UHGV virus genome: UHGV-1351569 | Length of the DNA: 64,000 nucleotides | Source: a virus | Reading direction: 5' to 3' (one strand) | Shown here: one piece after another, positions 6,521 to 64,000 of the stretch | Numbering within the stretch: position 1 is the stretch's first letter | How the letters are laid out: each line of letters starts with the position of its first letter | Notes under the pieces: generated by a model | Told to the model about the DNA's origin: nothing | Databases searched by the model: none | Seen by the model: the letters and a program-made list of their open reading frames with translations, nothing else | Made by a program: the position numbers and the translations under genes

Positions 6521-6655
6521 AATCTTGTCAACTGCCAAGGAGAAGAGAATGAAAGTTTTGTTTGTTGTGTATGTGATGATTCAATATTATCACCCGATGT
6601 TTACTTATAATCTGGTGAACAACATTATTGATATTATTCAAAGGAGTATGTAATT

Positions 6656-7033
6656 GTGAGTGAGTCGAAGAGAATCAATATGAAACGATTGGTATTAGAA
6701 GTTAGTCCACTTTTTGGTGAATTGGCTATAGAAAAAGTAAATAACATGTATCGTTTGACGCAAGAAGACGATATGCTGTATTTTACGCCTAGTGAAATCA
6801 TTCATTTAACCCAAATTGAATATCCTTATACTGATAAAATAGTAAGCATCAATGATGAGCACAAAATTCATTTTTATTCTTCATGCCCAGGATTTAATAT
6901 TAAAAGTGAGTCAATGTGTTTATCAGTTATCCATTGGGATAGTTTTATAGATAAGATTAAATATTTTTATTATTCTAATGAAAGAAAACATAGTTTAAAA
7001 TGGTTTAAAAAATTGCAATGCTATTATTACTAA
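6656..7033 (+). CDS. hypothetical protein, 125 aa (GTG start)
   Basis: aaggag RBS 9 nt upstream of GTG; see finding on downstream start-less open frame. Confidence 0.5.
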   Translation: MSESKRINMKRLVLEVSPLFGELAIEKVNNMYRLTQEDDMLYFTPSEIIHLTQIEYPYTDKIVSINDEHKIHFYSSCPGFNIKSESMCLSVIHWDSFIDKIKYFYYSNERKHSLKWFKKLQCYYY

Positions 7034-7220
7034 CGCTTGCAATCAGAACGATGAAACTCTTTTAAATGTATCAAAATGTTATGAAGATGGAGATGTCTTA
7101 ACTATTCGTCAAATTGATGATTTTCGATCGCATATTGTCACATTTACCAAAGACGAAGCTATTGCGCTAAAGACTTATCTTGATTCTGTCATTCCAACTA
7201 TGATTTCAAAGTGAGGAAAT

Positions 7221-9216: not shown

Positions 9217-9218
9217 TA

Positions 9219-9243
9219 GGGAGCCTTCGGGCTCCCTTTTTTA
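9219..9243 (+). terminator. rho-independent terminator
   Basis: gggagcc-ttcg-ggctccc then tttttta. Confidence 0.65.
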
Positions 9244-9266
9244 TTTCAAAATTTTTTCACAAAACG

Positions 9267-9296
9267 GTTTACAAGCATAAAGCTTTATGGTACTAT
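9267..9296 (+). promoter_or_regulatory. T4-type early promoter with conserved leader (PeSL-like cassette)
   Basis: GTTTAC, 18-bp spacer, TACTAT; leader repeated elsewhere. Confidence 0.5.
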
Positions 9297-9330
9297 ACAA
9301 CTATCAACTGATACGGATTTGGAGAATAAA

Positions 9331-10300
9331 ATGAAAACTGTAACTATCAATAAGGGTATCTACTTCGGTAAAGAAATCTCTGGAACTTTTGAGCTCTTAG
9401 GCGAATGGTTCCCAGATAATGCTCCGGTAGATGCACAAGGAGATGGTAAAGTTTTTGTTGAAATTGACGGTAAACGTCGCGGTGTTTGGGTTTACAAATC
9501 AGATATTTCATATGATGGTGTAAAAGTTGAAGAAGTTAAAGAATCGTATGAAGATATGAAAACCCGCATTAATAAAAGATTTAATGTTATGGGAATGATG
9601 ACGAATGGTATTATTAATGGAAATATTCGTTCATTGATTATCTCTGGTGCAGCAGGTATTGGTAAAACGTATTCTTTAGATAAAGCTTTAAATAAAGCAA
9701 ATGATATTGGATACATTGAATATAAAAGCATTAATGGTAAAATCTCTGGTATTGGTCTTTATGAGCAGCTTTGGAATAATCGTGAAGAGAATTCTGTCCT
9801 TTTGATTGATGATGTGGATGTTTTCTCTGATATGGACATTCTTAATCTTCTAAAAGCTGCTCTGGACACTGGAGAGACCCGTAAAGTCTGCTGGAGCACG
9901 GCGTCTTCTTACTTAGAAGAAAAAGGCATTGAGCGTGAGTTTGAATTTAAAGGAACGATTGTTTTTATCACAAACGTTGACATTGACCGCGAATTAGACC
10001 GTGGTACTAAACTTGCCCCCACACTTACAAGCATTAGTGTCCCGCTCGGTTTATTTGGATTTAGGCGTTCACACTAATGAAGAAATTATGGTCAGGGTTG
10101 AAGATGTTATTCTTTCAACTGACATGATGCAAAAGCGCGGTCTTTCTGATGAAGAAACTTATAAAGCATTATCATGGATGAAAGTTAATGTTAATCGTTT
10201 ACGCAATGTTTCACTGCGTACTGCTCTTTATCTTGCTGACTTTATTATGACCGACAAAAACGGTTGGGAAGAAATTGCTGAGGTTACTCTTCTGAAATAA
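9331..10300 (+). pseudogene. AAA+ ATPase gene interrupted by a frameshift (N-part 9331-10077, C-part frame from 10001)
   Basis: Walker A GAAGIGKT, Walker B VLLIDDVD, sensor-1 TIVFITNVD in first frame; lid-like C-domain continues in the next frame; frames meet at a C5 run 10016-10020. Confidence 0.6.
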
Positions 10301-10389: not shown

Positions 10390-10704
10390 ATGGAGGTAAT
10401 GATGTTATACTCAAAGGCTCGTGAAATTTACGAAACTAAAATTAAAGAAGCAGTATTTCAGTTCGCAACAACGATGCGATGGACAAATGATTGGGAGTAT
10501 TCAAAAAATCATAAGAAGCCCATGGTGACAAGAAAGGCTCATATGTTAGTGTTAATAGACCGTGAGCAGATTAAAGCCCGAGAAGCCCTCCAGAATCATA
10601 AAAAGGCTGCCTTTGAATGGTTTATGGATAACACTGCTCCTGAGACTAAGAAAGCAGTGAGCGCCTGGTTCAGTGGAAAAAATTGTGAAAGAAGTTTCTT
10701 TTAG
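10390..10704 (+). CDS. hypothetical protein, ~100 aa
   Basis: ggagg RBS; exact start among adjacent ATGs uncertain. Confidence 0.5.
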   Translation: MEVMMLYSKAREIYETKIKEAVFQFATTMRWTNDWEYSKNHKKPMVTRKAHMLVLIDREQIKAREALQNHKKAAFEWFMDNTAPETKKAVSAWFSGKNCERSFF

Positions 10705-10706
10705 TG

Positions 10707-10736
10707 GTTTACAAGACTGTTCCTCTGTGGTACTAT
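10707..10736 (+). promoter_or_regulatory. T4-type early promoter with conserved leader (PeSL-like cassette)
   Basis: GTTTAC, 18-bp spacer, TACTAT, leader acaactatcaactacggaggaacagaaaATG. Confidence 0.5.
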
Positions 10737-10764
10737 ACAACTATCAACTACGGAGGAACAGAAA

Positions 10765-11292
10765 ATGAACGCTAAAGATATTTTCAACTTGGTAAATTAC
10801 AACGATGGTAAATTTAAATCTGAAGCACAAAGCAAGTTCTTTAACGACATCTCAATCGGAGGTGAAATTACTGTTGATGGAGGACAAATTTACAAATCCC
10901 GTTGGAATTGGATCGTTATTATCGATGAGATTGGTATTGTAGAAATTTACAAGAATACGAATAAAAATCGTACATTACACTGGTCTCGTGATACTAATGA
11001 ACAGTACAAAAAGGATAAAGCATCTAAATTATCTCGTGTAACTCAAGAAGATATTGAGTTCATCAAGAAAGATATTTTAATGTATGATAACTTAATTGCT
11101 GAAGAGCAAGCTGTTATTGATAAATTTGACGAGATTAAAGCTTCTCGTGAAATTCCTGATTTTATGAAAGAATCAGTAAATGAACGATACTCTCTCATTT
11201 CAGAGCGTATTGAAACTTACAAAAAGCAAAGAGCTGAACGCCAAAATACTCTTCGGAAGTTTGAAGAACGGTTAAAGACGGTACTCGCATAA
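10765..11292 (+). CDS. hypothetical protein, 175 aa
   Basis: ORF downstream of conserved leader. Confidence 0.6.
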   Translation: MNAKDIFNLVNYNDGKFKSEAQSKFFNDISIGGEITVDGGQIYKSRWNWIVIIDEIGIVEIYKNTNKNRTLHWSRDTNEQYKKDKASKLSRVTQEDIEFIKKDILMYDNLIAEEQAVIDKFDEIKASREIPDFMKESVNERYSLISERIETYKKQRAERQNTLRKFEERLKTVLA

Positions 11293-11752: not shown

Positions 11753-12651
11753 GTGAGGAAAATATGTCAGTAGTAATTAATAATGTCAATGCAGTAATTA
11801 AATCTTTAGTTAATAAAAAATTGAATGAATGGACTGTACTTCGTCGTGGAGAGCCAGATAAATTTTTTCATAGATTTAACCCAACTTTGGATTTGAATGT
11901 TATTGACAGAGATGTTCATGCTGAAATTTTAGATAAATTTAAAGTTGATATTGGGTTTGGATTAGATAAACATTTACAACGAACAAACGGGTCTGGAATG
12001 GGTTTATCTAATCGCATCATGAAAGCCCTTAATAAAATTGGAGCGTTGTCTCGTATTAATGCGAGTGAAATCCTTCGTAATTATAATAAAGGATATGACC
12101 TTTATGGTCGACTAATGCCAAAATTATCATTCGATCAAATGATTGCGGATTTGTGGGAAAATCAACGACGATTATTAGCATTGGGAGCTCGATTAGCTAA
12201 AGGTCTAGATAAACAAATGATTTTTAAGACCAATAATACAGAAGACCTTAAATGCTTTAAATTTAGTATTCGTGGCGATGATTATTACATCAGAACTCGC
12301 TCCACAGATTATGTCAATATGGGCCATCATCTCTGTTTAGCTTTTGAAGTTTTAAAAGAAGCTGGAACATTAGAATATACGTCTGGTACTAAATGCCCGA
12401 TTGGTTCAAATTGTATTTTGATTTATCGCCCGGATGAATCCAGTTCAACTAAATTGCCTACGAAACCTGTACCAGTTCGTAGTAATGAAAAACATTCTGA
12501 ACAAATTGATTATTTTAATAAGCAAATTGAAGAGCTGAATATTTCTATTCAACAGTATGACGATGAAATTTTCAGACTATCTGGATTGAGTAGTAAAGCT
12601 AAATCTGAGCGTGAAAAGTTAATTAAAATTGTCGATTTACTTAAATCTTAA
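11749..12651 (+). CDS. hypothetical protein, 300 aa, C-terminal coiled-coil tail (member 1 of 4-gene tandem family)
   Basis: ATGA overlap upstream; C-terminal heptad-like helix. Confidence 0.6.
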   Translation: MSEENMSVVINNVNAVIKSLVNKKLNEWTVLRRGEPDKFFHRFNPTLDLNVIDRDVHAEILDKFKVDIGFGLDKHLQRTNGSGMGLSNRIMKALNKIGALSRINASEILRNYNKGYDLYGRLMPKLSFDQMIADLWENQRRLLALGARLAKGLDKQMIFKTNNTEDLKCFKFSIRGDDYYIRTRSTDYVNMGHHLCLAFEVLKEAGTLEYTSGTKCPIGSNCILIYRPDESSSTKLPTKPVPVRSNEKHSEQIDYFNKQIEELNISIQQYDDEIFRLSGLSSKAKSEREKLIKIVDLLKS

Positions 12652-18036: not shown

Positions 18037-18510
18037 ATGTTATTGACTGGCAAATTATATAAAGAAGAAAAACAGAAATTTTATGATGCGCAAAACGGTA
18101 AATGCTTAATTTGCCAACGAGAACTAAATCCTGATGTTCAAGCTAATCACCTTGACCATGACCATGAATTAAATGGACCAAAAGCAGGAAAGGTACGTGG
18201 ATTGCTCTGTAATCTCTGTAATGCTGCAGAAGGTCAAATGAAGCATAAATTCAATCGTTCTGGCTTAAAGGGACAAGGTGTTGATTATCTTGAATGGCTA
18301 GAAAATTTACTTACTTATTTAAAATCCGATTACACCCAAAATAATATTCACCCTAACTTCGTTGGAGATAAATCAAAGGAATTTTCTCGTTTAGGAAAAG
18401 AGGAAATGATGGCTGAGATGCTTCAAAGAGGATTTGAATATAATGAATCTGACACTAAAACACAATTAATAGCTTCATTTAAGAAGCAGCTTAGAAAGAG
18501 TTTAAAATGA
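18037..18510 (+). CDS. 49: endonuclease VII (Holliday-junction resolvase)
   Basis: 157 aa; CxxC...HLDHDH...CNLCN zinc/His-Cys box; matches recalled T4 gp49. Confidence 0.92.
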   Translation: MLLTGKLYKEEKQKFYDAQNGKCLICQRELNPDVQANHLDHDHELNGPKAGKVRGLLCNLCNAAEGQMKHKFNRSGLKGQGVDYLEWLENLLTYLKSDYTQNNIHPNFVGDKSKEFSRLGKEEMMAEMLQRGFEYNESDTKTQLIASFKKQLRKSLK

Positions 18511-19044
18511 CAATTGAAAAAGAAATTGAAGGATTGATTCATAAAACTAATAAAGACCTTTTAAACGAGAATGCTAATAAAGATTCTCGTGTTTTTCCAA
18601 CTCAACGGGACCTTATGGCTGGTATTGTGTCTAAACACATTGCCAAAAATATGGTCCCGTCTTTTATTATGAAAGCGCATGAAAGCGGAATTATCCATTT
18701 CCATGATATTGATTATTCCCCTGCTCTTCCATTTACTAATTGCTGTTTAGTAGATTTAAAAGGAATGCTTGAAAACGGATTTAAGCTCGGTAATGCACAG
18801 ATTGAAACTCCTAAATCAATCGGCGTTGCTACTGCAATTATGGCACAAATTACTGCACAGGTTGCTTCCCACCAATATGGCGGAACGACTTTTGCGAATG
18901 TAGATAAAGTACTTTCTCCTTATGTTAAACGCACCTATGCAAAACATATTGAGGATGCAGAAAAATGGCAAATCGCTGATGCGTTGAATTATGCTCAATC
19001 CAAAACAGAAAAAGATGTCTATGATGCATTCCAGGCGTATGAGT
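18507..19044 (+). CDS. nrdD: anaerobic ribonucleotide reductase NrdD, exon 1
   Basis: Exon ends after gagT where P1 pairing augagu/gcucau with intron IGS is visible. Confidence 0.85.
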
Positions 19045-19254
19045 TAATTTAATTCAGGCTCATGTAAAACCGGTCTAAACGGGGAACCTCTCTAGTAGAC
19101 AATCCCGTGCTAAATGTTCTTTTGAACTAAATGCCTAACGACTAACCGTGATGAATGTAGCGGTGTAGAATAGAAGCTAATGCTATTCGAAACGGCCGGC
19201 ATCGAAAGATGAAGATATAGTCTAATCTGCATGGCGACATGCAGCAGTCATCTT

Positions 19255-19262
19255 GTATAAAT
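19255..19262 (+). promoter_or_regulatory. T4 late promoter core (TATAAATA) inside intron, upstream of endonuclease ORF
   Basis: Exact TATAAATA 30 nt upstream of the ORF ATG. Confidence 0.55.
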
Positions 19263-19292
19263 AAGATTATCTTATGAATACGAGGTGAAACA

Positions 19293-20063
19293 ATGAAATG
19301 GATAAAAAGACGTTGTACTAAAATAAAAGATAAAGACGCATTTACATACTTAGTTAAGTTTTCTAATGGCGACATTTATATCGGTTATAAAAAAGTTAGA
19401 ACAATTAAAAACAAGCCCACAAACTGGAAAACTTACACAACGTCATCTAAGTATATAAATGAACGCTTAAAAACTGATACACCTACTAAATGGATAATTT
19501 TAAAAACATTTGATAGTTATAAAGACGCATTAAAACATGAAGAAGAGGTCATACGTAAATATTTTTATAGCAAAAAATGTTTAAATAAATCCATAGGCGG
19601 TAAAAAGTTTTATAAGCATCCGGATACTGAAGAACATATTCAAAAATTAAGAGATGCTCATAAGGGTAAAGTGTTATCCGAATCTCATAAAAACAATATA
19701 AAATCTTCTGTAGCTGAATATTATGCTAAAAACGGAAGATCTAAGGAACATGTGCAAAATAATATCAATAGTCGAAAAAGTAAAAAACAAGTATCGATAA
19801 AGCTTAAAAATAAAACTTTTAGAAGTTTTAAAAAAGCGGCGGAATATTTAAATTGCACTGAAAGTGAAGTCGAAACTCATCCTCTTGTTTTGAGTATTAA
19901 GACTACTATTCATAAAGTTCCTGAATATGTGGTTGTTGACGGTATTAAGTATACGTCTTATATAGAAGCAGCTAAAGCGCTAAATTTTCATCCTAGCACT
20001 ATAAAAGAACGTTGCGTATCTATGGACTATCCAAATTTTGTTGTTTCATATAAACGGGCATGA
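19293..20063 (+). CDS. intron-encoded homing endonuclease (I-TevII-like)
   Basis: 256 aa ORF wholly inside the intron; size and position match T4 I-TevII. Confidence 0.8.
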   Translation: MKWIKRRCTKIKDKDAFTYLVKFSNGDIYIGYKKVRTIKNKPTNWKTYTTSSKYINERLKTDTPTKWIILKTFDSYKDALKHEEEVIRKYFYSKKCLNKSIGGKKFYKHPDTEEHIQKLRDAHKGKVLSESHKNNIKSSVAEYYAKNGRSKEHVQNNINSRKSKKQVSIKLKNKTFRSFKKAAEYLNCTESEVETHPLVLSIKTTIHKVPEYVVVDGIKYTSYIEAAKALNFHPSTIKERCVSMDYPNFVVSYKRA

Positions 20064-20077
20064 ATTTGCGACTCATG

Positions 20078-21369
20078 CCGAATATAATGATGAAGTAAAT
20101 ACACTTTTCAGCTCTAATGGACAAACGCCTTTTGTAACAATTACGTTTGGTACGGGAACTGACTGGACTGAACGAATGATTCAGAAAGCAATTCTGAAAA
20201 ATCGTATTAAAGGTCTTGGTCGCGATGGGATAACTCCTATTTTCCCTAAGCTTGTTATGTTCGTTGAAGAAGGTGTTAATCTTTATAAAGATGACCCGAA
20301 CTATGATATTAAACAGCTTGCTCTAGAGTGCGCAAGCAAAAGAATGTATCCTGACATCATTTCGGCTAAGAACAATAAAGCTATCACCGGTTCATCTATT
20401 CCTGTTTCTCCAATGGGTTGCCGCAGTTTCTTGAGCGTATGGAAAGATTCGACTGGTAATGAAATTCTTGATGGACGTAATAATCTTGGCGTTGTAACAC
20501 TGAATCTTCCTCGCATCGCGTTAGATTCTTATATTGGAACACAGTTCAATGAACAGAAATTTGCCGAATTGTTCAATGAACGAATGGATTTATGTTTTGA
20601 AGCTTTGATGTGTAGAATTAGTTCCTTAAAAGGAGTTAAAGCGACTGTTGCTCCTATTCTTTATCAAGAAGGTGCATTCGGGGTTCGTCTTAAACCAGAT
20701 GACGACATAATTGAGTTATTTAAAAACGGTAGAAGTTCAGTGTCTTTGGGATACATTGGTATTCACGAATTGAATATTCTTGTCGGTCGTGATATTGGGC
20801 AGGAAATTTTGACTAAAATGAATGCTCATCTTAAGCAGTGGACTGAAAGAACCGGTTTTGCTTTTAGTTTGTATTCTACACCTGCTGAAAACCTGTGCTA
20901 TCGCTTCTGTAAACTTGATACCGAAAAATATGGAAGTGTAAAGGATGTTACTGATAAAGGCTGGTACACTAACAGTTTCCATGTTTCAGTAGAAGAAAAT
21001 ATCACTCCGTTTGAAAAGATTTCTCGTGAAGCGCCATATCATTTCATTGCGACAGGTGGTCACATTTCTTATGTTGAACTTCCTGATATGAAAAATAACT
21101 TAAAAGGTCTTGAGGCTGTATGGGATTATGCTGCACAACATTTAGATTATTTTGGCGTTAACATGCCAGTAGATAAATGTTTTACGTGTGGAAGTACCCA
21201 TGAAATGACTCCTACTGAAAACGGGTTTGTTTGTTCTATTTGTGGAGAAACTGATCCTAAAAAGATGAACACAATAAGAAGAACTTGTGGTTATTTGGGA
21301 AATCCGAACGAACGTGGATTTAATCTTGGCAAAAATAAAGAAATCATGCATAGGGTTAAACACCAATGA
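20078..21369 (+). CDS. nrdD: anaerobic ribonucleotide reductase NrdD, exon 2
   Basis: In-frame continuation; C-terminal RRTCGYLG glycyl-radical motif; joined product about 609 aa. Confidence 0.85.
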
Positions 21370-21836
21370 ATTATGATAGATTTTATCCTTGCGATTTTGT
21401 GAATGGCCCTGGATGCAGGGTCGTTCTTTTCGTTACAGGTTGTTTGCATAAATGTGAAGGGTGTTATAATAAATCAACATGGAATGCTAGAAATGGCGTT
21501 CCATTCACTGGTGAAACACTAGAACAATTAATTGAATGTTTGAATAATGATTATATAGAAGGATTAACTATAACTGGAGGTGACCCTCTTTATCCTGATA
21601 ACCGAGATGTTATTCATTGCATTGTTCAAACAGTAAAAAATCTTTATCCGAATAAAAGCATTTGGTTGTGGACCGGATATAAGTTTGAGGATATTAAACA
21701 ACTAGAAATGCTTAAATATGTTGATGTTATTATTGATGGGAAGTATGAGAAAAATCTTCCGACCAAAAAGCTGTGGCGAGGATCAGATAATCAGCGACTT
21801 TGGTCAAATACCGATGGGGTGTGGAAACATGATTAA
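21366..21836 (+). CDS. nrdG: anaerobic RNR activating enzyme (radical SAM)
   Basis: 156 aa; Cys cluster CRVVLFVTGCLHKCEGC; ATGA overlap with nrdD. Confidence 0.88.
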   Translation: MNYDRFYPCDFVNGPGCRVVLFVTGCLHKCEGCYNKSTWNARNGVPFTGETLEQLIECLNNDYIEGLTITGGDPLYPDNRDVIHCIVQTVKNLYPNKSIWLWTGYKFEDIKQLEMLKYVDVIIDGKYEKNLPTKKLWRGSDNQRLWSNTDGVWKHD

Positions 21837-22809: not shown

Positions 22810-23023
22810 AACGTATCGTCGTAAAGATTTAAAAGTACGTGATTATGACTATTTCGGAAAGCGTAAAGCTCCTGATGGTGTAAGTCATAAAGATATGGTT
22901 GAAAACATTTTTCGCTCTGATAAATGGCGTAGAATGAAAGGCATTGATTCAGAAGTTAAAGATGAGTTAAATCGTCAATTGCGTGGTGAAGTAAGAAAGT
23001 TGAAAAAAATCAGTTTACATTGA
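22802..23023 (+). CDS. highly basic small protein, 73 aa
   Basis: ATG at 22802 overlaps upstream stop; Lys/Arg-rich. Confidence 0.5.
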   Translation: MGKTYRRKDLKVRDYDYFGKRKAPDGVSHKDMVENIFRSDKWRRMKGIDSEVKDELNRQLRGEVRKLKKISLH

Positions 23024-25631: not shown

Positions 25632-25805
25632 ATGAACACCCAGACTTCTGAAATAGATTATAATAAAATTCGTTCCTCTAAAGTAGAAATGATGAGACGC
25701 TTTAAAGAGTCTCATGATAAAGCTAAAGCAGAAGGAACTATAACATATAAGCGTATAAAATTTAGAAGCTCTAATGAGCCTCTGTATGGTGTATTATGCG
25801 GATAG
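25632..25805 (+). CDS. hypothetical small protein, 57 aa (below track cutoff)
   Basis: Hand-translated; stop overlaps the downstream hairpin. Confidence 0.35.
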   Translation: MNTQTSEIDYNKIRSSKVEMMRRFKESHDKAKAEGTITYKRIKFRSSNEPLYGVLCG

Positions 25806-48307: not shown

Positions 48308-48931
48308 ATGATTATTAATCCTGCAGATGTTGAACAGTTATCTATAAAAGCTGAAAGCGTTGATTTTCAATATGATATGTATAAAAAAGTCTGTGAAAAA
48401 TTTACTGACTTTGAGCAGTCTGTTCTTTGGCAATGTATGGAAGCCAAAAAGAATGAAGCTCTCCATCGGCAGTTGAATAAAATCGTTAAAAAGCATTTAA
48501 CTAAATCACCTTATCAGCTATATCGTGGTATATCAAAATCGACAAAAGAACTCATTAAAGATTTACAAGTTGGAGAAGTGTTTTCAACGAACAGAGTAGA
48601 TTCATTTACTACTAGTTTGCATACAGCGTGTTCTTTTTCTTATGCTGAATATTTCACTGAAATAGTACTTCGCTTAAAAACTGATAAAGCTTTTAATTAC
48701 TCTGACCATATCAGCGATATTATACTTTCTTCTCCTAATACTGAGTTTAAGTATACATATGAAGATACTGATGGATTAGATTCAGAGCGTACTGATAACT
48801 TAATGATGATTGTACGTGAACAAGAATGGATGATTCCAATTGGAAAGTATAAAATAACTTCTATTTCAAAAGAAAAATTACACGATTCATTTGGAACATT
48901 TAAAGTGTATGATATTGAGGTAGTTGAATGA
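48308..48931 (+). CDS. modB: ADP-ribosyltransferase ModB
   Basis: 207 aa; R-S-E ART signature (LYRG, STS, QEWMIP); size and order as T4. Confidence 0.75.
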   Translation: MIINPADVEQLSIKAESVDFQYDMYKKVCEKFTDFEQSVLWQCMEAKKNEALHRQLNKIVKKHLTKSPYQLYRGISKSTKELIKDLQVGEVFSTNRVDSFTTSLHTACSFSYAEYFTEIVLRLKTDKAFNYSDHISDIILSSPNTEFKYTYEDTDGLDSERTDNLMMIVREQEWMIPIGKYKITSISKEKLHDSFGTFKVYDIEVVE

Positions 48932-49530
48932 AATATTCAGCAATGCAATTAAAAGATTTTAAAATCAAATCAATGGATGCATCGGTGCGTGCTTCTATTC
49001 GTGAAGAATTACTTTCTGAAGGATTTAATTTATCTGAAATTGAACTTTTAATTCATTGTATTACTAATAAGCCAGACGACCACTCTTGGTTAAATGAAAT
49101 AATCAAATCTCGTTTGGTTCCAAACGATAAACCTCTTTGGAGAGGTGTTCCAGTTGAGACTAAGCAGGTGTTAAATCAAGGAATTGATATTATTACATTT
49201 GATAAAGTAGTATCAGCTTCATATGATAAAAATATAGCTCTACATTTTGCTTCTGGTTTAGAGTATAACACACAAGTTATTTTTGAATTCAAAGCTCCTA
49301 TGGTATTTAATTTCCAGGAGTATGCTATAAAAGCTCTACGTTGTAAAGAATATAGTCCGAGTTTTAAGTTTCCGGATAGCCATCGCTATCGTAATATGGA
49401 ATTAGTTTCAGATGAACAAGAAGTAATGATACCAGCTGGAAGTGTATTTAGAATTGCAGATAGATATGAGTATAAAAAGTATTCAACATACACTATCTAT
49501 ACTCTTGATTTTGAAGGATTTAATCTATAA
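48928..49530 (+). CDS. modA: ADP-ribosyltransferase ModA
   Basis: 200 aa; LWRG, SASY, QEVMIP; paralogous to preceding gene. Confidence 0.75.
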   Translation: MKYSAMQLKDFKIKSMDASVRASIREELLSEGFNLSEIELLIHCITNKPDDHSWLNEIIKSRLVPNDKPLWRGVPVETKQVLNQGIDIITFDKVVSASYDKNIALHFASGLEYNTQVIFEFKAPMVFNFQEYAIKALRCKEYSPSFKFPDSHRYRNMELVSDEQEVMIPAGSVFRIADRYEYKKYSTYTIYTLDFEGFNL

Positions 49531-63093: not shown

Positions 63094-63110
63094 AAAAATT
63101 TCACAAAACA

Positions 63111-63140
63111 GTTTACATACCACAAGGACTGTGGTACTAT
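63111..63140 (+). promoter_or_regulatory. T4-type early promoter with conserved leader (PeSL-like cassette)
   Basis: GTTTAC, 18-bp spacer, TACTAT, leader ...gatacggatttggagaataaaATG. Confidence 0.5.
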
Positions 63141-63174
63141 ATAACTATCAACTGATACGGATTTGGAGAATAAA

Positions 63175-63381
63175 ATGTTTACTACAGCTGAATTAAAACG
63201 AGCAAAAGCTAAGAAAGGGCAAGGAAAATATAAAGCTGAATTAGTTAAAGAACTTCAGTTTGCTGAGGCTGAATTGAATTCAATGATTATTCAAAATGCT
63301 CCAGAAACTGAAATTGCTCTTAAACGTATTGCGAATAAGTGTCTTCGTGATGCAATCGTCGATCTTTTAGCGGATTATTGA
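63175..63381 (+). CDS. hypothetical protein, 68 aa
   Basis: ATG 63175 after conserved leader; track TTG start 63163 unlikely. Confidence 0.5.
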   Translation: MFTTAELKRAKAKKGQGKYKAELVKELQFAEAELNSMIIQNAPETEIALKRIANKCLRDAIVDLLADY

Positions 63382-63650: not shown

Positions 63651-63835
63651 GTTCATTATGGTGGTGTTTTGTTTGGTTAATTAGTATTCCATTGATTTGT
63701 TTAGTATTTACTTTTGTGATGAGGTTATTATGAAAATTTTGAATTCTGTACTTATTGCTTGTGCATGGTGGGTTGCACAGGTTTCAGCGGTAGTAGTTGG
63801 TATTCACATTTATTACGAATATTTTTAAAAAAGTT

Positions 63836-63865
63836 GTTTACAAGACTGTTCTTCCGTGGTACTAT
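63836..63865 (+). promoter_or_regulatory. T4-type early promoter with conserved leader (PeSL-like cassette)
   Basis: GTTTAC, 18-bp spacer, TACTAT, leader ...ctatcaactacggaggaacagaaaATG. Confidence 0.5.
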
Positions 63866-63893
63866 TACCCTATCAACTACGGAGGAACAGAAA

Positions 63894-64000
63894 ATGAAAA
63901 AGATTGTTAAAGCTATATGGAATGTAGTTATAATACTAATAGTTTTGAGTATATTCCCAATCGTTTTAATGATTGATGTATTAAACGTTTACTTTGGATT
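63894..64000 (+). CDS. hydrophobic small protein, 5' part only (runs off window end)
   Basis: ATG after conserved leader; an in-frame upstream ATG at 63729 with gagg RBS is an alternative start. Confidence 0.4.
   Translation, partial: MKKIVKAIWNVVIILIVLSIFPIVLMIDVLNVYFG

Follow-up and report, generated by a model that had tools for sequence, protein, structure and literature searches.

In the 64,000-nucleotide stretch of viral DNA analyzed here ("the window"), a single extra cytosine interrupts nrdC.10, an accessory early gene of a T4-like phage. The insertion is recent and confined to one lineage, and it has very probably inactivated the gene, turning it into a pseudogene. The most likely origin is replication slippage in a run of four cytosines, which would have converted GCCCCA into GCCCCCA. 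Translation from the ATG at 9331 would then deliver 230 native residues followed by 18 wrong ones, with a stop at 10075. Such a product, being without the Ser-Arg-Ser helix, the fifth strand of the core (beta5), and the lid, would not act as a normal ATPase. This is, of course, an ordinary phenomenon in a known gene.

To judge from its sequence, the window is a segment of a Tequatrovirus (T4-like) genome, and it runs in reverse orientation when compared with the standard map of T4. Searching with 1.2 kb of sequence around the site gave matches to approximately 500 phage genomes at 95-99% DNA identity. At the equivalent place, the relatives hold a gene annotated as nrdC.10, in each case one ORF of 969 nt; the label "thioredoxin" is a frequent mistake. 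The neighboring genes are nrdC.11 (an RlaP-type nucleotidyltransferase) upstream and nrdC.9 downstream, and the same arrangement is seen in phages SA20RB, KNP5, ECP2301, PP01, and T4. In the contig carrying the window gene, Pfam family PF10127 is found upstream of nrdC.10 and DUF7203 downstream. On these alignments, the broken gene reads as the T4 nrdC.10 orthologue. Its features, together with those of three other lesions discussed below, are collected in Table 1.

Table 1. Coordinates of nrdC.10 features and of other single-nucleotide lesions in the window.
Feature	Position	Strand	Details
A6 run (relatives have A5)	7007-7012		177-aa mobD.1/y05I-like ORF split into 6632-7033 and 6999-7214; found in 0 of 368 phage records
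Intrinsic terminator after nrdC.11	9218..9245	+	GC-rich hairpin and T-run; a terminator is annotated at the equivalent place in SA20RB
T4 early-promoter-like site before nrdC.10	9268..9296	+	GTTTAC ... TACTAT, 9/12 matches, TG extension; an early promoter is annotated at the matching site in SA20RB
Shine-Dalgarno GGAG	9321..9324	+	6 nt upstream of ATG 9331; read from the sequence
Truncated nrdC.10 frame	9331..10077	+	248 aa: native residues 1-230 and an 18-residue out-of-frame tail TLTSISVPLGLFGFRRSH, then TAA
Walker A, GAAGIGKT, residues 106-113	9646..9669	+	G106, G109, G111, K112, and T113 invariant in 28 sequences
Walker B, VLLIDDVD, residues 156-163	9796..9819	+	D160, D161, and D163 invariant in 28 sequences
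Strand beta4 with sensor-1-like Asn, VFITN	9961..9975	+	N215 in FITN (212-215), invariant in the alignment
C5 run (frameshift site)	10016..10020	+	G at 10015; GCCCCCA in the window, one C more than C4 (GCCCCA)
Peptide across the site			full-length ...KLAPHLQALVSR... versus truncated ...KLAPTLTSISVPLGLFGFR
KLAP-H-L-x-A-L-V-S-R-S			residues 227-239; conserved block (28-member alignment)
Out-of-frame nrdC.10 remainder	10022..10300	+	native residues 231-322: H231, ALVSRS with R238, strand beta5 (VYLDL), helical lid with LRNVSLRTAL
Premature stop TAA in shifted frame	10075..10077	+	
LRNVSLRTAL			residues 290-299; nearly invariant (28-member alignment)
Natural nrdC.10 stop TAA	10298-10300	+	
1-nt loss, ATTATATAC -> ATTATTAC	16191		80-aa Phage_T4_Y04M ORF, C-terminus altered; found in 0 of 507 phage records
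A7 run (relatives have A6)	23003-23009		97-aa DUF5499 (gp55.5-like) ORF cut to 73 aa; found in 0 of 409 phage records

The DNA around nrdC.10 is an insertion hot spot among the relatives (window ~9220-9330; L009 14569-14978; L007 1537-2263). Phage vB_EcoM_F1 (F1) and several others have approximately 480 bp extra between nrdC.11 and nrdC.10, with a DUF4031 ORF and a small ORF, and in RB3, nrdC.10 and nrdC.9 are separated by a putative intron-like endonuclease. Within the window, short promoter/leader segments recur far apart at 87-91% identity (9255-9333 and 63099-63177; 10703-10769 and 63832-63898). These are probably copies of T4 early-promoter regions.

The preliminary description of this DNA reported an AAA+-type ATPase frame broken at a run of five cytosines, with a first frame running to 10077 and a second open from 10001 to 10300, the two meeting at gccccc (10016-10020). 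The break was confirmed as one extra C, and the coordinates hold. The first ORF might start at TTG 9319 or at ATG 9331, and the second frame is open from 9998 or 10001 to 10300. When one C is removed, the two frames join to encode 322 amino acids from the ATG, or 326 from the upstream TTG, the latter being the length of approximately 326 that had been proposed. The repaired 322-residue protein is exactly P0061, the commonest NrdC.10 allele, which is recorded on 252 contigs, including phages T2 and HY01. Conversely, when the intact F1 protein was used as a tblastn query, its residues 1-235 matched one frame of the window and its residues 228-322 matched the next, at 98-99% identity. A match of this quality, divided between two frames, identifies a frameshift in a single gene far beyond chance.

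The length of the C run in T4-like orthologues, which the preliminary description had singled out for comparison, places the change in the window. Aligned with its relatives at the DNA level, the window is longer by exactly one base at the run. Their commonest state is GCTCCA, seen in SA20RB, KNP5, ECP2301, PP01, F1, and T4; a run of four (GCCCCA) is seen in T4_ev240, TB004, and RB3, and C5 in none of them. A 121-nt query taken from the window matched 492 phage records, and in all 60 that were listed it aligned over 120 nt. None of the 492 was at least 99% identical to the query, and none of these records carried C5. Within the window itself, there are ten C4 runs and two C5 runs, including the one at 10016-10020.

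Searches of contig collections with short patterns were also made. A 15-mer around the C5 run gave 41 matches in viral_contigs, all of them chance matches having no similarity to nrdC.10, and a 30-mer pattern spanning the C4/C5 gap found one C4 contig and zero C5 contigs in the same collection. In metagenome_contigs, from which even a known carrier contig is missing, the 30-mer searches (the C4/C5 gap pattern and plain C5) returned zero matches.

The protein family tells the same history. A large protein collection holds 1007 homologues of NrdC.10. The best 120 of these are nearly all single proteins of 321-340 amino acids, with 99-100% query coverage and identities that descend to 53%; the distant ones come from T4-like phages of Acinetobacter, Aeromonas, and Vibrio. 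The preliminary description had considered, as the contrary case, that orthologues might have two separately conserved ORFs. The orthologues examined do not bear this out, being single ORFs. Among the family members examined, none is truncated at the C5 position, the few shorter entries being N-terminally short or partial. Two proteins that might have been like truncations, P0186 (247 aa) and P0176 (229 aa), were rejected for this reason; it is N-terminal residues that they are missing, through choice of start site or a partial record. The repaired protein aligns with phrog_1250 over residues 1-322 (E = 1e-166), and its identity to the homologues listed, more than 100 in number, is 53-100%. 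Members of this family have one uninterrupted ORF of approximately 322-335 codons, and this is what the window lacks. By descent, the window gene is evidently a member of the NrdC.10 family, but a disrupted one.

What might the gene have encoded before its disruption? The repaired protein is predicted to be a P-loop ATPase having the AAA+ fold. Its AlphaFold model (pLDDT 88.7, pTM 0.72) has an N-terminal beta domain (residues 1-62), a long helix (73-95), a P-loop core of five strands (101-105, 130-135, 155-160, 209-214, and, as beta5, 240-243), a helix at 229-238, and a helical lid (249-320). When the model was compared with the PDB using Foldseek, the top 50 matches were all AAA+ proteins, with E ~1e-5, a probability of 1.0, and TM-scores of 0.3-0.45. 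These include Sec18/NSF, ORC1, RFC subunits, Hda, RuvB, dynein, and sigma-54 activators. The Pfam AAA models all scored under their gathering cut-offs (23.5 versus 27 bits for AAA_14, the best of them, and 16.5 versus 21.2 for AAA). PHROG 1250 has no functional annotation, and the PHROG clamp-loader families gave weak matches. A phmmer search against PDB sequences was discarded as meaningless, its sole match being a designed helical protein. A comparative-genomics paper of 2006 noted, for nrdC.10, no more than a weak AAA match. In the 28-row family alignment, which includes the frameshifted protein (P0001) itself, R238 and the R291-L299 block score as nearly invariant.

In the predicted fold, the break follows Pro230, where helix 229-238 begins, and is within the ATPase core. 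The preliminary description had assigned an N-domain to the first frame and a lid to the second. The lid does indeed lie in the second frame; the break, however, is not at the border between ATPase and lid, but inside the core, ahead of the arginine-finger-like helix and beta5. Everything from the N-terminal beta domain through Walker A and Walker B to sensor 1 is therefore retained in the 248-residue product, whereas the S-R-S motif, beta5, and the entire lid with LR-x-AL are missing. By analogy with other AAA+ proteins, R238 (in ALVSRS) is a candidate arginine finger, and R291/R296 (in LRNVSLRTAL) are candidates for sensor 2; the frameshift precedes the codons for all of them, and the 248-residue product has none. 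Because the break precedes the SR helix, beta5, and the lid, this product should be inactive, unable to fold or to hydrolyze ATP normally, an expectation drawn from the predicted structure and the conservation of the motifs. A trace of full-length NrdC.10 may still be made by spontaneous +1 slippage at CCC-A, a context where slippage of this kind is possible at a low level.

The lesion is also young. Where codons of the repaired frame differ from those of eight relatives, the change is overwhelmingly synonymous; downstream of the break, the pairwise totals, taken over pairs that are not independent, are 35 synonymous and 2 non-synonymous, and the repaired protein has zero private substitutions. 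This, in turn, means that the C-terminal part was under purifying selection in the frame of the orthologues until very recently. Read in this way, the C-terminal part shows no decay so far.

The same allele is found in several assemblies. The exact 248-residue truncated product is on record on 11 contigs. Seven contigs retrieved via this product all have C5 and match the window at 100% identity across 1.6-6.7 kb. They are JGI 3300045988 Ga0495776_001669 (168,202 bp, presumably the window's own contig), an ENA MEGAHIT contig of equal length, two SPAdes contigs (ERZ2661055 and ERZ2661042), and three MEGAHIT contigs from SRR2191451, SRR2191163, and SRR2228257. The last three are separate gut metagenome runs of PRJNA217052 (the Fiji Community Microbiome Project, FijiCOMP), which we take to be Illumina data. 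The complete identity of these contigs implies a single clone, and they may all derive from one cohort or one source. Here, what has been replicated is the sequencing, not independent evolution.

Nor is this lesion alone. Comparison of all ORFs of phage F1 with the window found three further unique 1-nt indels, each breaking a small conserved ORF (Table 1). At these three sites, the best phage matches differ by the indel alone. The altered products are found in this lineage only, on 11-16 contigs from JGI, ENA, Logan, and further FijiCOMP runs; the altered Y04M product (P0077) forms a one-member cluster with 16 contigs, and the truncated DUF5499 product (P0078) is on 12. All four lesions lie within window 1-23 kb, which we take to be the dispensable (accessory) tk-nrdC-nrdD region of the T4 map, and none is in the replication genes at 23-64 kb. 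Selection acting on real mutations would give such a distribution, unlike random sequencing errors.

Several other observations were made along the way. The mobD.1/y05I-like ORF is frequently misannotated as [quoted passage not shown] At gene borders, there are two more 1-nt differences from F1, namely A4 versus A3 at window 11748 (the end of nrdC.7) and CCC versus CC at 25641, just after an ATG. An apparent break in the window near 49043 was rejected. There, the window has an intact ADP-ribosyltransferase (ModA/ModB-like) ORF (48928-49530, 200 aa), and it is F1 in which an 11-nt deletion splits the gene into two annotated CDS (L008 ~11864-12455). A 256-aa NUMOD1-type ORF separates nrdD into parts of 181 aa and 442 aa (window ~18500-21400; L059 10481-13343), an arrangement that looks like the known T4-type nrdD intron with its homing endonuclease. 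In the protein collection, the 90% cluster that holds the gp43 DNA polymerase of this phage has an E. coli OpgD as its representative, an evident clustering artefact, and T4-like proteins are filed under the names "Enterococcus faecalis" and "Pseudomonas aeruginosa," probably from contaminated assemblies.

The preliminary description had offered sequencing error, genuine inactivating frameshift, and programmed frameshift as explanations for the break, and it is the genuine inactivating frameshift that the evidence favors. A 1-nt difference in a homopolymer may suggest an artefact of sequencing or assembly, with the phage truly having C4 and an intact gene. The suspicion grows when one strain shows four such unique 1-nt indels, and when its SPAdes contigs are labelled with a coverage of only ~4. 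Against it, C5 was recovered at 100% identity in all seven contigs, by MEGAHIT (k119 and k127) and by SPAdes, from at least three separate runs. The same C5 in several read sets and from several assemblers excludes a random homopolymer miscall. Further, the products of the other lesions recur across 11-16 contigs, the Logan assembly included. The comparison with F1 ORFs found zero frameshifts in the replication genes of the window, and neither the ten C4 runs nor the second C5 run was among the gene breaks that it returned. An artefact is, on this evidence, very unlikely. The four indels might instead be real without being independent. They might come from a frameshift-prone (mutator) replication apparatus, or they might be sites of ribosomal or transcriptional slippage by which accessory genes are expressed at a low and tunable level, nrdC.10 then being down-tuned, not dead. 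This is a shade less probable again. By exact look-up, the gp43 sequence is unique to the lineage, a fact that speaks neither for nor against a mutator allele.

Programmed, or usefully leaky, +1 frameshifting would have a Pro-tRNA slip from CCC to CCA at GCC-CCC-A, so that both full-length and truncated NrdC.10 are made. Skipping one base after CCC (10018-10020) does restore ...KLAPHLQALVSR... exactly (KLAPHLQ), and a tRNA in the P site can re-pair from CCC 10018-10020 to CCA 10019-10021, both of these being Pro codons; this is necessary for such a shift, not sufficient. In enterobacteria, CCC-N is a classic context for +1 shifts, and a tRNA-Pro (UGG) is among the tRNAs that T4-type phages encode. 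A programmed site would, however, be conserved, and the extra base is in 0 of 492 phage records and in no homologue examined, its allele being that of a single recent clone. The next codon is a sense codon (ACA), neither a stop nor a known hungry codon; no Shine-Dalgarno-like (GGAGG-like) element stands upstream of the site; and the RNA downstream folds no better than shuffled sequence (z = 0.29). The programmed reading is thus unsupported, and its chances are slight. The same slight chance is given to a phase-variable switch, with C4 (on) and C5 (off) as alternating states of the run in the phage population. Homopolymer tracts are the usual substrate for such switches, and related phages do have the C4 allele. 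A five-base run is, however, much shorter than typical contingency tracts, and efficient transcriptional slippage and classical phase variation both need a longer one. Most relatives, having GCTCCA, possess no run at all. Further, no mixture of C4 and C5 was seen among contigs of the strain, neither in the seven with C5, whose choice via the truncated product was biased, nor in three more (L059-L061) that were found via another lineage marker and also carry the 248-residue call. Least probable of all is a functional split gene, with an N-terminal fragment and a C-terminal fragment initiated separately at GTG 10001 or ATG 10088, the two either assembling with each other or acting on their own. 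Gene callers predict a downstream ORF of 70-87 aa, and the sequence of the C-terminal fragment is still intact. But GTG 10001 has no Shine-Dalgarno sequence ahead of it, nor does TTG 10013, and the break falls within the alpha/beta core, ahead of beta5, rather than at a domain boundary, all of which makes a separate C-terminal piece unlikely. Zero split orthologues were found among the homologues examined, and the C-terminal fragment starting at GTG 10001 is not on record in the protein collection.

If the gene was inactivated, as is preferred here, then loss of nrdC.10, a widely conserved and uncharacterized gene of T4-like phages with an AAA+ fold, is compatible with a phage's continued circulation, as seen in human gut samples. 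This fits the view that the gene is dispensable, and the biological weight of its break is presumably little. In practice, the matter is one of annotation. What public metagenome records list as genes of 248 aa and of 70-87 aa are to be understood as two pieces of one pseudogene. The C5 homopolymer difference should not be "corrected" as an error without inspection of the reads.

It is instructive to set the locus beside known systems. In the prfB (RF2) gene, as at this site, a +1 change is at a codon whose tRNA could re-pair (here, CCC to CCA). The nrdC.10 site differs in that its A-site codon is not a stop, a Shine-Dalgarno-like stimulator is missing upstream, and orthologues do not share the site. 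With AAA+ proteins (NSF/Sec18 D2, ORC1/Cdc6, RFC, Hda, and RuvB), NrdC.10 shares Walker A, Walker B, and the sensor-1 Asn; its S-R-S motif before beta5 resembles the "SRC" arginine finger of RFC, and the LR-x-AL motif on its helical lid resembles AAA+ sensor 2. It differs from these named systems in its low identity to them (10-17%), the low TM-scores, and the extra N-terminal beta domain (1-62). From T4 nrdC.10 itself (T4p094, NP_049708, PHROG 1250; a 36.7-kDa uncharacterized protein in some records), the window gene differs by little. DNA identity is 96% with T4 and 97-99% with other Tequatrovirus, and the setting is the same: nrdC.11, its terminator, and an early promoter come first, and nrdC.9 follows. 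The extra C at 10016-10020, with the 248-residue product that it gives, sets the window gene apart, and it is present in 0 isolate genomes of the phage collection. The closest parallel is therefore with frameshift pseudogenes made by slippage in dispensable phage genes, where the same gain of 1 nt in a short homopolymer strikes an accessory early gene in one lineage. Similar lesions stand in other accessory ORFs of the window genome, and the F1 ADP-ribosyltransferase gene, split by its 11-nt deletion, is a comparable lesion in a dispensable phage gene. From such slippage pseudogenes, nrdC.10 of the window shows no substantive difference.
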